The notes beneath the pieces are model-generated. The model had not been told where the DNA came from, did no database searches, and saw nothing but the letters and a program-made list of their open reading frames with translations. A stretch of 30,236 nt of DNA from a virus (lineage: Duplodnaviria; Heunggongvirae; Uroviricota; Caudoviricetes): positions 1 through 30,236 of the IMG/VR virus record IMGVR_UViG_2597489893_000002. One strand, written 5' to 3'. How positions within the stretch are numbered: position 1 is the stretch's first letter; each line of letters starts with the position of its first letter. The position numbers were made by a program, and so were the translations under genes. Shown piece by piece: positions 11,871 through 17,217 of this stretch.

Positions 11871-11978
11871 TTACTGTTTCCTGAGTGCTTCTATGACGCC
11901 AGCAATACCGCCTAAAACTATGCCAGCAATGACAACGAGAACAATTGGATGCTTGTCAGCAAAATCCCAGAAGCCCAT
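11871..11978 (-). CDS. small hydrophobic membrane peptide, 35 aa
   Basis: ATG overlaps upstream stop as TGATG; one predicted TM helix (IVLVVIAGIVLGGIAGVI). Below the 60-aa ORF-track cutoff; found by manual translation. Confidence 0.45.
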   Translation of the reverse strand: MGFWDFADKHPIVLVVIAGIVLGGIAGVIEALRKQ

Positions 11979-12142
11979 CACTGATCCTTAGAAGCTGTTT
12001 TTAATATCGGCCATACCAATGTTACAGCTACTGCCACCAACGCCCCGTCCGATAAAACTGACAGGATTGTGCTGGTGAAATCCACCAGCACGGACAGCAA
12101 GAGAAAACCAATGGCGATTGCGATACGTGCCTTGCTTGCCAT
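11978..12142 (-). CDS. small membrane protein, 54 aa
   Basis: ATG overlaps the TerB-like gene stop as TAATG. Two hydrophobic segments. Manual translation. Confidence 0.5.
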   Translation of the reverse strand: MASKARIAIAIGFLLLSVLVDFTSTILSVLSDGALVAVAVTLVWPILKTASKDQ

Positions 12143-12576
12143 TACAGATAATCTTCCACACGAAGACCTAAACGACGGCCTACTTCTTCCAGTACTTTGT
12201 GTTCTGCTGGCTCGATTTCACCGTCCGCTTCTGCAATTGTCAGCATGTTAACGAATACTTCTTCCGCTTCTTTTGGATCGTTTTTGATATCTTCAATTTC
12301 GCGAAGGATATTCATGCGACCAACACGGAAGCCAGCTTCCAGTTGCTCGGTAAAGCGGGTAATTGTTGCAGTAATTTCGTTACCAAAATGACTAAGACGC
12401 GGATTAGAGCGGACAAGCTGATCAAGTTTCGCTGTTTCTTCTTTTTCGATTTCACCATCAGCGGCAGACACCAACAAACAGCCACCGATAATGGCCTCCA
12501 TCAGATCGCGATTCTCAACTTTTTTCAGCTCTACTTTTGCAGAAGCGACTTTCTTGCCGAACAATTTACCGAACAT
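12142..12576 (-). CDS. tciA: TerB-family (tellurite-resistance-like) protein, 144 aa
   Basis: Two-repeat TerB layout with AADGEIEKEE and AEADGEIEPAEHKVLEEVGRRLGL signatures. Position next to tRNA genes and ban matches P1 tciA. Confidence 0.8.
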   Translation of the reverse strand: MFGKLFGKKVASAKVELKKVENRDLMEAIIGGCLLVSAADGEIEKEETAKLDQLVRSNPRLSHFGNEITATITRFTEQLEAGFRVGRMNILREIEDIKNDPKEAEEVFVNMLTIAEADGEIEPAEHKVLEEVGRRLGLRVEDYL

Positions 12577-12769
12577 TGGTTATCCCTCAATAAAAGTGAC
12601 ATATTTATTAGATTGCGGTGCCGGGTTCCTCCCGGTGTCCTTTGGCTGGTTATCCACCGTGGACGGGGAAACAAGGAGAAATGAATGGACTGATATAACC
12701 ATTTCCCCGCGTGCGCTTAGCCGCATTCACCGCAACGGAAAGAGCATTCTTGGTGGACCTGTAGATTGG

Positions 12770-13508
12770 GATATGAACCCGTTACAGGAGAATGCTCTTA
12801 CCTGTTACGTGCTCCGTTTCGTGGAGCTAACGGCGGGTGATCGGGCCGCACCAGACTGGACTTATTTCAGCGTTATGCTCATGCCAGAGAATCAAACTGT
12901 GATGGTCGGTGCTGAACTCCGACACAGGGTTGTAGCAAGCCCCGCAAAGCGCGCACTACTGTAGTTGCGGCACATCAGCCTGTGCATTCACCACAATGTT
13001 GAGAACACTGGTTGTCACGCTGCAACGCAACATTTATTCGTAGATTGGGATATGACCCCGTTACGCCAGTGTTCTCAACGTTGTAGTGCCGGTTACGGTT
13101 CCGGCCAGGCCTCTTCCTCAACGGGGTGTTCTCCATACGGACTACCGTTTATTGGTCGTTCCTGCGGTTTATGTTGTGAAGCCAGATGCTTATCTTCTGG
13201 TTGCTTCAAAGAGCTGCACTTCATCACAACGGTAAGAGCACTCGATGCATTTAAGCCAAGCTCCATAAGGGAGAATGCCCTTACCTGTTGTGTTGTGATG
13301 ACCGGTGCTGATCTCCGGCTTGCGGTTATTTCAGACTCTCACGGGCGTTTAATTGCCCCGCCGAACAGCTCTTTTCCGCAATAGCTGCAATGTCTTTCGC
13401 GCATCAGCCTGCGCATTCATCACAACGGTAAGGGTACTTCGTAGGGATTCGAACCCTCTGCCAAGCTCGGCGATCTCCGACGTCGCAAAATACCCTTACC
13501 TGTTGTGC
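12770..13508. repeat. repeat-rich tRNA-like non-coding stretch
   Basis: Recurring motifs cccttacctgttg (13278, 13493, 13932; variant 12787), gtagattgggatatga(a/c)cccgttac (two copies), catcagcctg(t/c)gcattca(c/t)cacaa (two copies). One long hairpin (13421-13500) contains a tRNA T-arm-like GGGTTCGAATCCC on the - strand but does not fold as a canonical cloverleaf. Confidence 0.4.
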
Positions 13509-13584
13509 TGGTGCCGATTAACGGACTCGAACCGCTGACATCCTGCTTACAAGGCAGGCGCTCTACCAACTGAGCTAAACCGGC
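13509..13584 (-). tRNA. tRNA-Thr (anticodon UGU)
   Basis: 76-nt cloverleaf on - strand: acceptor GCCGGTT/AATCGGC, anticodon loop CTTGTAA, T-loop TTCGAGT, CCA end. Confidence 0.88.
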
Positions 13585-13586
13585 AT

Positions 13587-13662
13587 TGGCGATGGTGAAT
13601 GGATTTGAACCATCGACCCGTTGATTAACAGTCAACCGCTCTAACCGCTGAGCTACACCATC
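13587..13662 (-). tRNA. tRNA-Asn (anticodon GUU)
   Basis: 76-nt cloverleaf on - strand: anticodon arm GTTGA-CTGTTAA-TCAAC, T-loop TTCAAAT, CCA end. Separated from tRNA-Thr by 2 nt. Confidence 0.88.
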
Positions 13663-14316
13663 ACTTGCCGGGTACGTCTCCGGCGAGGGCTTCCACCTCC
13701 GTATGCTTTTCGGCGCACCTCGCCCTAGCTGCAATTCGGTAACAGGGGATGCACAACCCTGGCTTCCAGCGTGATTAGCGCCTTCAGCATGACGGGATAT
13801 ACCCGTAAATTCGTGGAACTGTACCCAAAGTGCTGTTAAGCACCGCTGTTACGCTGAAAAGAAAACGCAACAGGAAAGGACGCTGACCAACAGATGGCCC
13901 CTTCTCGTTCATCTGGTTAATCACACCAGCGCCCTTACCTGTTGTGCCTCCCCGTTCCCTAATACACAGACGGGGACACTCTGCGGTCGATTTTTTGACG
14001 GGGGACGACTCATACCCCGTGGCATCTGGCTTCTTAGGCCGCTACCATCATAAGATCATCGTTTGCATTTACTTTAATGGTCAGTTTCTAAACCGCCGCA
14101 AAGTCGCTAACCATGACGAAAACCCTGAAAAAAACGCCCACCCGAAGATGGGCAAACTGGAAGCTCGTAACGCACTTCGGCGTTGCCACTTAGGCGCATG
14201 GTCAACCTGGCAACTCGGTGGTTTGTCTGGGAGGACTAGGCCCAGCCATGCTTACCGCCGCGCCTGTCGCGGCTAACAGCTAAATCGCTCTATAAATCAC
14301 GATTCATTGAGGCGAT

Positions 14317-14344
14317 ATTACACTAATAAATTTATTAGAGCAAT
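14317..14344. promoter_or_regulatory. bipartite palindromic C1-operator-like site overlapping the dmt stop codon
   Basis: 14328-14344 on - strand reads ATTGCTCTAATAAATTT (17/17 to remembered consensus); 14317-14333 on + strand ATTACACTAATAAATTT (15/17). Both share the perfect palindrome ctaataaatttattag. Confidence 0.55.
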
Positions 14345-17217
14345 ATACCCAAAACGTCATGAGCTACACCTCGAGTGTCCCCCTTACAAGACACAGAACG
14401 TCTGGCAAAAAGAGGTTCCACTCTGAAGCCACTGTCATGATAAAGCTCTCTGATGTTTGGCGCGCCACTGTTAGTAATGAGAACCTTTGCACCTCGACGA
14501 TGAGCATCCGTCAACAGAGACACCAGGCGTTTTTGCTCTTCAAACTTAAAGTCATGACCGGAATAGTTCGTGAATCCCTCTGTATTTGGAAGCGGTTCAT
14601 ACGGCGGATCGCAAAAGATGACATCTCCTTCTCCGGCAGCTTCAATCACCGCTGCAAAATCACCGCATACAAACTCAGACCGCCCTTCCGCACCGAGGAA
14701 GGCTTCCATCTCCTGTAATGGGAAATACGGAGTTTTATACTTCCCATAACCGACATTGAACTCACCGGCCTGGTTGTAACGCGTCAATCCGTTAAAACAA
14801 TGTCGGTTCAGGAACAAAAACGCCGCTGCGCGATGTAAATCATCATAGACTTGTTTGTTAAACGCATTCCGTACTGCCAGGTATCCTTCCTGTGTGTTGT
14901 AGTCCTGGAAGAAACGATGTGCCAGAGTGATAAGTGAATGCGCCTCGCGTTGCAGAGTCTTGTAAAAGTTAATCAGGTCAGCATTCACATCATTTAGCAG
15001 ATTTTCCTGGTATCCGGCATTCATGAAGACAGCTCCGCCACCAACGAAAGGTTCAATCAGGCGCTTCCCTTCTGGCAAATAGCGAAAGATTTGTTCCAGA
15101 ACACCAAATTTTCCACCAGCCCATTTGAATATGGACCGTTCGAATTCTGCCGCTGGTTTAACTTTTCGCTCTTTTGTTTCACTTCCTTCTTTCTGCCGAC
15201 ATACGGCCTTAGTAATCCGATCGCCAATCCAGCGCATTACTGGTATTGCCATACTATTGCCGATCGCTTTGTAACGCGGTCCGTCAGCTGCAAGCATCGC
15301 GGCCTCTTCTTCGCTTAAATCAGGATAGTTATTGCGAAGGTATGCCAGTTCATCTGAAGAAACTTTTTTACGCTTTTCCGTAGGGATCAACGTATGCCCA
15401 TCAGGAAAACCTTGCAGCCTTTCACATTCGACAGGGGTAAGACGGCGTATTCTACCGTCGCCGAGCAATACAATTGGTGCTTCATGGTTACATGTTAAAG
15501 TTGGTGCCGAATTATCGGTTTTTATCTCAGCCCCTCCTTGCCCATGTGCCATGGCAACTATGTTTGTATCATCGCAAGATCTGATAGCGATGTTTGAAGT
15601 ATATCTGGTAGTTTCCTTCCCCTCGCCTCTGCTCGGCGCAATATCCCGGCGCACGCCTTCGAACTCAAAAAGTACCGTTGCGGGATCGAGGTCTGTTCGA
15701 GCACTTGCGACAACAAACACGCGTCGGCGTCGTTGTGCCACTCCGAAGTATTGGGCATCAAGGATTCTCCAGGCCACCTTTCGCTGCGGCCCATAAATAC
15801 AACCACACTGCGGCCACTTTGGAGCATGGCAACCGGTTTTGCCATCCCACCGCCAGAACGCGTTACTTTTTCCTGATTCAGGTCGATCACCTGGTTCAAA
15901 TGGCGCATCTTCTCCAGCCAATCCGGCAAGGAAACATCCGAAGGCGTTATCTGCCGATGACAAGACTCCTGGGACATTTTCCCAGACAATAACGGCTGGT
16001 TTGAGAAATGACTCAGCCCGTTTGTCGTCAATTGCATTTGCAAGCTCCACATACTTTAAAGTTAGCGCGCCACGCTCATCATCAAGCCCACCACGTAATC
16101 CCGCGATACTGAATGCCTGACAGTTATGGACCACCGCACCATTGAGGATATAGGAATGATCACCTTCGACTTCTATGTTGTATACAGTATCTAGGCCTAC
16201 CGATTTAAACTCTTTGACTGTTCGTAAAAGCATTCCATGAGCCAATCTTGATTTACGTGACAATTTCTGCGGGCAGATTGTTACCTGATAATAATTCCGT
16301 TGATTTACCACGCGATCCTCGATCACTTTTTTGGGCTCAACTTCAATAAAGCTGACCGAAGAAACATAACCACAAGTCTGTGACAACCCCGCAACGCCCC
16401 AAGCAAGCGCAGGACTAACACTATTAATTCTAAATCCCGCTTTACCACTTGGTGTCCCATCAGTATCAAGATAGCCTTGTAAAAACACATGACGCAATGG
16501 ATGCGACATCACCCATGCAGGGATACGCTTAGCATGGCTTAACTCGCCAAAATGTTCATTAAGCCAATTGGCATAACACGTATCATTCAAGGTTACTTTG
16601 ATGCTCCCTCGGATTTCGCTTGCCACGGAAAATATGTTTTCTGGTATGCGGCAATGAAACTTTCTCAATTTCTGGCAATTTATGCCAAAAACAACCGCCT
16701 TCTTAGATTTACCTCTCCATCTCCTAATATATCCATCGCCAACATAAGCGCCCGCAAGATACATAGCCTGTTCTTCAGACAAGAACCGAGAACAAATATC
16801 TGGAGATGCAATATTGAAATTAGTTAGAGCGCACCATTGATATCCCGGCATATCACATGCTGCTCGCCATTCCGGTTCAGACAACAACTCTCTCTTAAAA
16901 TATGTGCCATTTTTCCGGGTGTTTTGGGCTTTCCACCGAACAGCCAGGAAGGGATGGTCATTGGTTGTTCTTATACCTAAAGGCTGCCCAACGGCATTAA
17001 GTAACCCCGTATTAGCTATTTTTGAACCAACTCTTTTTACTTGTTGTAACCGCCCGAGATGACTGACTACGTAATCGCCAGGGCAAACATCTTCTATTGG
17101 TTTATAACCATTTTTACAAAGAACCATATGCCCCGCGGTAAAACATGGTGTTCCCCCGACGAGCACGTCAGGGGATTCGATTTCCCCAGCCAAGACTTTT
17201 TTGGCAAGTTTTGTCAT
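14335..17217 (-). CDS. dmt: DNA methyltransferase, fused C5-cytosine MTase (intein-containing) plus Dam-type N6-adenine MTase; main ORF lacking motif I
   Basis: After the intein: CQAFSIAG (motif IV with upstream GGTP), ENVPGV (VI), QRRRRVFVV (VIII), RRLTPVECERLQGFPD (IX), KAIGNSMAIPV (X). C-terminal 270 aa is Dam-like (FKWAGGK, EPFVGGGAVF, DPPY). The ORF begins only 24 codons before PC; motif I is in the upstream fragment. Confidence 0.85.
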   Translation of the reverse strand: MTKLAKKVLAGEIESPDVLVGGTPCFTAGHMVLCKNGYKPIEDVCPGDYVVSHLGRLQQVKRVGSKIANTGLLNAVGQPLGIRTTNDHPFLAVRWKAQNTRKNGTYFKRELLSEPEWRAACDMPGYQWCALTNFNIASPDICSRFLSEEQAMYLAGAYVGDGYIRRWRGKSKKAVVFGINCQKLRKFHCRIPENIFSVASEIRGSIKVTLNDTCYANWLNEHFGELSHAKRIPAWVMSHPLRHVFLQGYLDTDGTPSGKAGFRINSVSPALAWGVAGLSQTCGYVSSVSFIEVEPKKVIEDRVVNQRNYYQVTICPQKLSRKSRLAHGMLLRTVKEFKSVGLDTVYNIEVEGDHSYILNGAVVHNCQAFSIAGLRGGLDDERGALTLKYVELANAIDDKRAESFLKPAVIVWENVPGVLSSADNAFGCFLAGLAGEDAPFEPGDRPESGKSNAFWRWDGKTGCHAPKWPQCGCIYGPQRKVAWRILDAQYFGVAQRRRRVFVVASARTDLDPATVLFEFEGVRRDIAPSRGEGKETTRYTSNIAIRSCDDTNIVAMAHGQGGAEIKTDNSAPTLTCNHEAPIVLLGDGRIRRLTPVECERLQGFPDGHTLIPTEKRKKVSSDELAYLRNNYPDLSEEEAAMLAADGPRYKAIGNSMAIPVMRWIGDRITKAVCRQKEGSETKERKVKPAAEFERSIFKWAGGKFGVLEQIFRYLPEGKRLIEPFVGGGAVFMNAGYQENLLNDVNADLINFYKTLQREAHSLITLAHRFFQDYNTQEGYLAVRNAFNKQVYDDLHRAAAFLFLNRHCFNGLTRYNQAGEFNVGYGKYKTPYFPLQEMEAFLGAEGRSEFVCGDFAAVIEAAGEGDVIFCDPPYEPLPNTEGFTNYSGHDFKFEEQKRLVSLLTDAHRRGAKVLITNSGAPNIRELYHDSGFRVEPLFARRSVSCKGDTRGVAHDVLGILL
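16123..17145 (-). other. intein with LAGLIDADG homing-endonuclease domain, 341 aa, in frame within dmt
   Basis: Starts with Cys (CFTAGHMVL, block A), block B IRTTNDHPFL, two LAGLIDADG motifs (YLAGAYVGDGY, FLQGYLDTDGT), block F/G VYNIEVEGDHSYILNGAVVHN followed by Cys+1. Removal restores GGTP-CQAFSIAG. Confidence 0.85.

Follow-up and report, generated by a model that had tools for sequence, protein, structure and literature searches.

Introduction

Ribonuclease III (RNase III) acts at the early sites of phage T7 (R1.1 and others) and at the stems of ribosomal RNA (rRNA) operons, where cleavage separates the products of a transcript and can leave a stabilizing 3' hairpin. In this article, a stretch of phage P1 DNA, positions 12770 to 13508 of an analyzed window of 30,236 nucleotides (nt), is described as the untranslated, highly structured middle portion of the ban transcript, which is read from the minus strand. 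The stretch is a multi-copy member of a widespread, unannotated family of phage RNA hairpins, and its copies, five in all and named A to E, are probably processing and stabilizer stems for the host RNase III in the ban transcript, a reading to which a probability of about 60% is assigned.

The closest described systems are found in phage lambda and in a prophage of Escherichia coli. RNase III processing sites in the late transcript of lambda in vivo are attributed to Daniels, Subbarao, Blattner and Lozeron 1988 (Virology 167:568), as cited in PMC7547250. In the Qin prophage, a 190-nt species of the small RNA (sRNA) DicF requires RNase III and its 5' end is the RNase III cut (bioRxiv 10.1101/2023.04.14.536235), confirming Faubladier et al. 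1990. For two further RNAs, STnc100 and PasD, a link with TerB genes has been reported from lambdoid prophages.

The source of the window is phage P1, as positions 12577-13700 show 100% identity with Escherichia phage P1 OP279344.1 and about 99% with other P1-like phages. According to the annotation of reference P1 (NC_005856), the setting is the C1-controlled ban operon on the minus strand, which comprises the Pban promoters and operators, a "dicF-like region", trnA (Asn), trnT (Thr), tciA, tciB, tciC, trnI, and ban. With the elements described here, the order along the minus strand becomes Pban, DicF-like sRNA, hairpin E, tRNA-Asn, tRNA-Thr, hairpins D, C, B, and A, an STnc100-like leader, tciABC, tRNA-Ile2, and ban (tRNA, transfer RNA).

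Five copies of one hairpin on the minus strand

The initial annotation described the stretch as a mixture of several short repeat families and long imperfect hairpins, both of which are present, although the supposed variety of families dissolves into a single hairpin family on the minus strand. The repeat search yielded the direct families D1-D6 and the inverted families I1, I2, and I8, which can thus be understood as parts (the two arms and their flanks) of a single long imperfect hairpin that recurs in five copies and overruns the range 12770-13508 on both sides. The motif CCCTTACCTGTTG, already noted to recur beside the tRNA genes, occurs exactly three times in the 30 kb, at 13278, 13493, and 13932, where about 0.03 matches are expected by chance and none of 100 shuffled sequences reaches three; the third copy is accounted for by hairpin E, which lies upstream of the tRNAs. 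The five copies, with their scores under a covariance model (R1) and their folding z-scores relative to shuffled sequence, are as follows.

12723-12814, minus strand: hairpin A, 5' arm 12809-12791, 3' arm 12748-12731 (R1 70.7 bits; fold z -4.3)
12984-13090, minus strand: hairpin B (R1 64.0 bits; fold -49.2 kcal/mol, z -6.5)
13216-13297, minus strand: hairpin C, 5' arm 13292-13274, 3' arm 13242-13225 (R1 65.9 bits; fold z -4.2)
13413-13512, minus strand: hairpin D, 5' arm 13507-13489, 3' arm 13438-13421 (R1 71.3 bits; fold -42.7 kcal/mol, z -4.7)
13867-13951, minus strand: hairpin E, upstream of tRNA-Asn (R1 38.2 bits, E 7e-8; fold -46.3 kcal/mol, z -5.5)

Copies A to D are imperfect hairpins of 80-107 nt, and the stem base CACAAC(A)GGUAAG...CUUACCGUUGUG is common to all five copies. 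The minus-strand RNA folds of A to E have z-scores from -4.2 to -6.5, whereas those of the plus strand are weaker (-2.3 to -4.7), the minus strand being the better one in every case. Individual features distinguish the copies. The stem of hairpin D begins 1 nt past the CCA of tRNA-Thr, hairpin E is devoid of the bulged A, and the stem of hairpin B is the variant CUACAACGUUGAGAACACUGG / CCAGUGUUCUCAACAUUGUGG, with a degenerate T-arm-like sequence, GGGGUCAUAUCCC, in the loop. The loop of hairpin A contains GGGUUCAUAUCCC, and in the isolate Ro157c2YLVW a 13-nt deletion falls within this loop and leaves the stem unharmed.

A covariance model of the hairpin family

The alignment underlying R1 consists of 18 hairpins from P1, phage D6, two Escherichia albertii plasmids, SSU5-like phage-plasmids, and the lambdoid phage mEp460, on which an 18-base-pair (bp) stem was checked. 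Within the window, the model recognizes the five hairpins only, all on the minus strand, with 64-71 bits for A to D and 38 for E. At least 120 loci with the 3' arm and tail were found in a scan of viral contigs, and 80 of them were searched with R1, giving 115 sense-strand matches (66 distinct sequences) in P1-like, D6-like, SSU5-like, and lambdoid phages. The specificity of the model is illustrated by a 15-mer scan of genome contigs, in which almost all matches were chance occurrences in unrelated phyla, the pattern being too short for 596 Gb; used as a negative control, 79 of 80 such loci from unrelated genomes were negative, and the sole positive locus was E. coli.

The conservation of the stem is evident from 64 distinct copies, in which 94.5% of the stem cells hold standard pairs and 12 of the 18 pairs show changes on both sides. 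No shuffled alignment out of 500 reached any of the five covariation measures, and slid alignments gave only 35-64% pairing. At columns 23-221, U-G is the most frequent pair, and it is also frequent at three other positions, from which it follows that the sense strand, the minus strand of the window, is selected to fold. The conserved base consists of CACAAC, a bulged A, and GGUAAG, paired with CUU(A/U)CC and GUUGUG; a U-U mismatch is frequent in the stem, and the tail GRUGAAUGC is common. The upper part of the stem covaries, while the loops (9-98 nt) are unrelated among members.

The unit formed by hairpin D, the spacer, and hairpin C is matched in 1263 of 5426 complete E. coli genomes (23%), in prophages and phage-plasmids, and among the matches listed the only annotation lying beneath it is tRNA-Thr. 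Plasmid matches are confined almost entirely to the Enterobacteriaceae (Escherichia, Klebsiella, Salmonella, Shigella, Citrobacter, and Cronobacter), apart from a single short match in Trichlorobacter. A scan of positions 11500-14400 against Rfam at E<=10 gave no match to the hairpins and only chance-level matches to microRNA, plastid, and transfer-messenger RNA (tmRNA) families; within 12770-13508, every family had E>4 and none attained its gathering threshold. The family is absent from Rfam and is left unannotated by PGAP.

Homologues at RNase III sites

In phage lambda, the family member lies at 44782-44867 (50.1 bits with R1) and begins immediately downstream of tR', the terminator of the 6S RNA. 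The model gave no match at other RNase III sites of lambda (sib, N-leader), and R1 is therefore not a generic detector of hairpins. As a separate observation, the annotated lambda orf-64 (44621-44815) covers the 6S RNA together with its terminator tR' and extends over the 5' arm of the lambda family member, and is probably not a gene.

Weaker members of the family occur in E. coli K-12 upstream of essQ (Qin, 1641157-1641228), upstream of kilR (Rac), and between ydfC and dicF (Qin). The last of these, NC_000913 1649168-1649265, has 21.4 bits (E 0.002). Counting 190 nt back from the 3' end of DicF places the 5' end at 1649245 and the cut between 1649244 and 1649245 of NC_000913, that is, CGUGCG^CUUCCGGUUGUGG, within the 3' arm and 12 nt above the stem base. 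When this cut is transferred by homology to the family alignment, both pairs between the presumed staggered cuts are paired in 61 of 64 copies and include a G-C in 53 of 64; at this presumed position, the copies would agree with the rule that Altuvia et al. give for cleavage in vivo (PMC6212723). The same source gives a length of E. coli RNase III substrates that matches the median stem: the main stem of the family, with a median of 22 bp and 21-23 bp in A to D of that alignment, has the form of an irregular double-stranded stem of about 20-22 bp that characterizes such substrates.

The Rac member, NC_000913 1418475-1418570 (locus L135, 10476-10571, minus strand), overlaps the 5' end of the annotated sRNA KilS upstream of kilR, which suggests that the 5' end of KilS arises by processing of the hairpin.

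Proposed RNase III processing of the ban transcript

Signals for RNA processing were among the options raised by the initial annotation and are the best supported of them, since the hairpins are conserved and covarying, lie on the transcribed strand, and have homologues at the Qin RNase III site and in the late leader of lambda, which RNase III is reported to process. In the mechanism proposed, RNase III would cut each stem about 12 bp above its base. For hairpin D, homology with Qin predicts cuts at 13493|13492 and 13433|13432, which would free the tRNA block from the downstream RNA, with tRNA-Thr keeping a trailer of about 16 nt for exonuclease trimming. Cuts in the other four hairpins would set apart the DicF-like leader, the spacers, and the tciA leader, parting leader sRNAs from messenger RNA (mRNA), and the stem remnants may stabilize the upstream products. 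Owing to the bulged A and the U-U mismatch, cutting might favor one strand, as at T7 sites, so that a protective stem would stay on the upstream product.

Several points weigh against this reading. Cleavage of the P1 copies themselves, and its position, is inferred from the homologues, among which the Qin member is a weak match whose cut is placed from a published fragment length (190 nt) and not from a coordinate; that the reported cuts in the late leader of lambda fall within the hairpin at 44782-44867 is likewise an inference. The sequence of the stem base is conserved beyond the known needs of RNase III, which could be explained by another factor or by recent common descent. The family is also present in leaders without tRNAs, so that the release of tRNAs cannot be its sole role, and the enrichment of T-arms in the loops, described below, is unexplained by RNase III processing.

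If the hairpins are RNase III stems, the family turns about 1.3 kb of apparently empty P1 sequence into the processing scaffold of an operon of tRNA, sRNA, and mRNA. Two old and isolated observations, the RNase III cleavage of the lambda late leader and that of the DicF precursor, are joined in one hairpin family, whose model would let annotators predict the processing sites of phage tRNAs and prophage sRNAs and flag spurious open reading frames (ORFs). The family also helps to account for the mosaic exchange of tRNA modules among phage groups.

Genomic context and neighboring elements

Wherever the neighboring genes are readable, the orientation of the hairpin is the same as theirs. In P1-like, D6-like, and SSU5-like loci, the hairpin that trails a tRNA block starts 1-2 nt past the CCA, with the exception of the last tRNA-Ser of locus L009, which has no trailing hairpin. 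Lambdoid phages carry the hairpin at three kinds of site, namely the early-left leader just downstream of a cI-like repressor, the interval between Q and the holin gene, and positions upstream of tRNA-Arg/Met clusters. The SSU5-like plasmid CP090273 (locus L008, 2200-3520, minus strand) has a compact operon without protein genes, in the order promoter, hairpin, tRNA-Asn-Tyr-Thr, two hairpins, tRNA-Ser, hairpin, and terminator, in which the promoter is a sigma-70-like sequence identified by eye and the terminator a hairpin with a U-run read as an intrinsic terminator. This operon shares spacers with P1, and the array of tRNAs and hairpins therefore moves as a module between unrelated phage groups.

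The remaining features of the P1 operon, in the order of its transcription, are the following.

14117-14220, minus strand: DicF-like leader sRNA region of the ban operon, mapped from the reference P1 annotation, with an intrinsic terminator at 14154-14128
13587-13662, minus strand: tRNA-Asn(GUU), found by ARAGORN
13509-13584, minus strand: tRNA-Thr(UGU), found by ARAGORN, its 3' end adjoining hairpin D
13298-13412, minus strand: spacer between hairpins D and C, with the small hairpins GCGCAGGCUGAUGCGC and GCCGGAGAUCAGCACCGGUC
13091-13215, minus strand: spacer between hairpins C and B, untranslated leader sharing repeat family D4 with the D-C spacer
12815-12983, minus strand: spacer between hairpins B and A
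12614-12734, minus strand: STnc100-like structured 5' leader of tciA (Rfam RF02076, 33.9 bits, E 5e-5, below the gathering score of 47)
12142-12576, minus strand: tciA, TerB family (Pfam TerB, E 2e-14), the first protein gene downstream of the hairpin array
11792-11867, minus strand: tRNA-Met(CAT) according to ARAGORN, which is the lysidine-dependent tRNA-Ile2 of the reference P1 annotation
10141-11511, minus strand: ban

The Rfam tRNA model scores tRNA-Thr and tRNA-Asn (13509-13662) at 72.9 and 72.7 bits, respectively. The STnc100-like element begins at the last bases, or foot, of hairpin A. The Pas sRNAs were considered as a model for the hairpins on account of the link between STnc100 and TerB and were set aside, being terminator-bearing Hfq sRNAs unlike the hairpins.

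The DicF-like leader looks like a P1-specific DicF-type sRNA or attenuator. The DicF model of Rfam has no match to it, so that the seed region differs; its 5' hairpin, however, corresponds to the one preceding DicF in Qin and shows a compensatory change relative to it. In D6-like relatives, a short family hairpin of 61 nt is found about 180 nt downstream of the counterpart of tRNA-Ile2. Elsewhere in the window, the dmt methyltransferase ORF (14335-17217, minus strand) encodes 960 amino acids, while dmt of reference P1 has only 2265 nt; residues 24-365 match Hint_2, LAGLIDADG_3, and Intein_splicing, a sign that an intein carrying a homing-endonuclease domain has been inserted close to the N-terminus.

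Alternative explanations

The differences between isolates were examined with regard to the expectation that the repeats mark insertions and deletions among P1-like genomes, which holds: reference P1 is without exactly one unit, 13237-13408, a segment of 172 nt between equivalent arms of C and D. In Ro157c2YLVW, hairpin C instead of D adjoins tRNA-Thr, and there are an extra tRNA-Tyr and an insertion after B; D6 and its relatives have a tRNA-Ser with its own hairpin at the place of P1 hairpin A. The upstream part of the B-A spacer (about 12898-12986) is nearly unchanged in SSU5-like plasmids, directly ahead of tRNA-Ser, and the position of this tRNA-Ser and its trailing hairpin is taken in P1 by about 85 nt of unrelated sequence. 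Exchange extends to lambdoid phages as well, since positions 13291-13427, a module of 137 nt bounded by arms, are about 98.5% identical to a segment of the early-left leader in mEp460, Stx phages, and IME207, and lambda 44868-44930 recurs as the loop of a D6 hairpin.

These data bear on the possibility that the hairpins are recombination signals bounding mobile cassettes of tRNA and other RNA. They would then be places where homologous exchange is favored or, in the manner of attC, sites that a dedicated recombinase recognizes in single-stranded DNA, with AAC...GTT as the core and one base outside the helix. The loss of a unit from reference P1 and the joining of C to tRNA-Thr in Ro157c2YLVW both fall at the arms, the lambdoid module is bounded by them, the same spacers and tRNAs recur across P1-like, D6-like, and SSU5-like replicons, and the stem base CACAAC...GTTGTG carries a conserved bulged base. 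We nevertheless regard this explanation as unlikely, because no recombinase gene is consistently near, the contexts range over repressor and Q/holin leaders and tRNA clusters, the orientation of the hairpin always follows local transcription, and one homologue is a mapped RNA cleavage site. A comparison with integron attC sites showed the core CACAAC...GTTGTG in place of the consensus RYYYAAC/GTTRRRY, and no integrase among the flanking genes, which are repressors, Q, holins, TerB, and tRNAs. Repeated arms of this kind are in any case substrates for homologous recombination, which explains the gain and loss of units and the swapping of modules between phages; repeats of 20-40 bp suffice for such exchange as a by-product, and homologous exchange between the arms explains all the isolate differences, so that a dedicated mechanism is not required. 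Retron, CRISPR-like, and ToxI-like repeats were considered separately and rejected, as genes for a reverse transcriptase or Cas proteins are absent and the units lack the form of short, regular repeats.

A second alternative holds that the hairpins are stable trans-acting sRNAs or tRNA-like decoys, serving as sponges for tRNA-binding enzymes or anticodon nucleases. Anticodon nucleases target phage tRNAs of the kinds found beside the hairpins, T-arms are enriched in the loops, the Rac member overlaps KilS, and the neighboring DicF-like and STnc100-like elements belong to sRNA families. Against these points, the loops, which would be expected to form the seed or decoy surface, are unconserved, most members have no T-arm, and there is neither a terminator nor an Hfq-type 3' end: a scan of the minus strand for terminators called none of A to E, whose tails read GRUGAAUGC and have no U-tract. 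A role as sRNA or decoy is thus judged quite improbable for the hairpins as such, although T-arm loops may act as decoys in some instances.

The T-arm sequences lead to a third possibility, that the hairpins are decayed tRNA genes in which eroded cloverleaves have left stems and an occasional T-arm. A T-arm sequence without a cloverleaf had been noticed in the stretch and is indeed there: GGTTCGAATCC lies at 13445-13455 on the minus strand, in hairpin D and outside any tRNA gene, within a canonical T-arm hairpin of the loop, AGGGUUCGAAUCCCU (about 13441-13459), beside an acceptor-like stem top. With a canonical T-arm defined as G-closed, of at least 4 bp and with the loop UUCRANN, such arms are present in 5 of 49 distinct loops of the family, compared with 0.025 expected from shuffled sequences; near matches are also present, including the GGGUUCAUAUCCC motif of hairpins A and B, and a compensatory change in the T-arm stem separates homologous loops of loci L006 and L012. 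Relatives, moreover, hold real tRNAs (Ser, Tyr, Arg) at neighboring positions.

The idea of decayed tRNA copies therefore keeps some validity for the T-arm relics in certain loops and loses it for the elements as a whole, whose conserved part is a stem of 18-23 bp without a cloverleaf. The long, conserved, and covarying stem has no counterpart in tRNA, and most loops have no T-arm. In the P1 region, ARAGORN found only tRNA-Met, tRNA-Thr, and tRNA-Asn and the Rfam tRNA model nothing extra at E<=10, so that no further tRNA or fragment emerged. Loops between the same arms are mutually unrelated, and none of 137 loci has an intact tRNA enclosed by family arms, the long spans being cross-pairing of neighboring hairpins. 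Decay of tRNA genes is accordingly considered very unlikely as the origin of the hairpins, and the T-arms may be tRNA-derived fragments captured in a freely variable loop, as relics of cargo.

Equally little weight is given to a bolder combination of these ideas, in which the hairpins would be boundary elements of a mobile tRNA/sRNA cassette system of unrelated temperate phages (P1, D6, SSU5-like plasmids, and lambdoids), with folded arms recognized as single strands to insert, delete, or swap cargo, and with the T-arms of the loops as scars of past tRNA cargo or as tRNA-like decoys.

An effect on transcription has also been weighed, by which the hairpins would shield the 1.7-kb untranslated leader from Rho or act as terminator or antiterminator elements. 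Structured RNA gives Rho few loading sites, and the hairpins do lie in long untranslated early-left and late leaders, in lambda directly after tR'. The only terminator found in the untranslated minus-strand leader, however, is the DicF-like one, with a weaker match inside tciA, and the stems have no U-tract behind them; in P1 and the SSU5-like plasmids, a Q or N system of the lambda type is absent from the vicinity of the hairpins, and protection from Rho leaves the fixed stem length and the conserved base unexplained. Such a role is highly improbable as the principal function and is compatible with RNase III processing as an additional effect.

The weakest explanation, that the region encodes the plus-strand proteins Upl and Plp or small minus-strand peptides, can be dismissed as extremely improbable and the annotated upl and plp genes as probably spurious, since, although both genes are listed in the reference P1 annotation, plus-strand ORFs of 139 and 157 amino acids exist, and short minus-strand ORFs start at the conserved UGAAUGC tail, neither frame is conserved between isolates (the 172-nt unit changes the C-terminus of Plp, and the 13-nt deletion in Ro157c2YLVW breaks upl), plp overlaps the tRNA-Thr gene, both run antisense to the operon across RNA stems with compensatory changes, and no ORF in the stretch matches Pfam, in line with the earlier view that it holds no convincing coding frame. 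The minus-strand peptides were rejected as a candidate because conservation is limited to their first codons, which fall in a small hairpin that shows a compensatory change. A defined RNA element thereby takes the place of the doubtful P1 genes upl and plp and probably of lambda orf-64 too.

Comparison with known systems

The kind of hairpin described here is already known, and its homologues are RNase III processing sites; what is new, as far as could be found, is the membership of lambda, Qin, Rac, P1, and the phage-plasmids in a single family that is tightly coupled to phage tRNAs. Among other repeated elements, integron attC sites and REP/BIME sequences resemble the P1 hairpins in their imperfect pairing, conserved stem base, extrahelical base, and variable top, and in being repeated between cassettes and linked to rearrangements. 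They differ in that the P1 hairpins do not follow the attC consensus, have no integrase or RAYT gene near, are co-oriented with transcription, and are illuminated by RNA-level evidence from homologues. STnc100 (RF02076) and PasD share with them the neighborhood of phage tRNAs and TerB-family genes, whereas the hairpins match no Rfam family at E<=10 and are without a terminator.

The family hairpin in the lambda late leader has the same stem base, bulged A, and U-U mismatch as the P1 hairpins and likewise lies in the untranslated leader of an operon; unlike in P1, the lambda hairpin is a single copy after tR' and is accompanied by no tRNA. The Qin dicBF site has the same hairpin architecture and similar arms (CAUAACGCGAAAGCGCAU...GUGCGCUUCCGGUUGUGG), together with a DicF-type element in the operon, with the difference that in Qin the hairpin precedes DicF, in P1 the DicF-like element precedes the hairpin, and tRNAs are absent from Qin. 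The R1.1-type sites of T7 and the stems of rRNA operons are similar in extending over about two helical turns, in containing internal loops or bulges, and in lying between functional RNAs of a polycistronic transcript, while having no sequence homology to the P1 family; furthermore, the rRNA stems enclose their cargo, whereas the P1 hairpins follow theirs.

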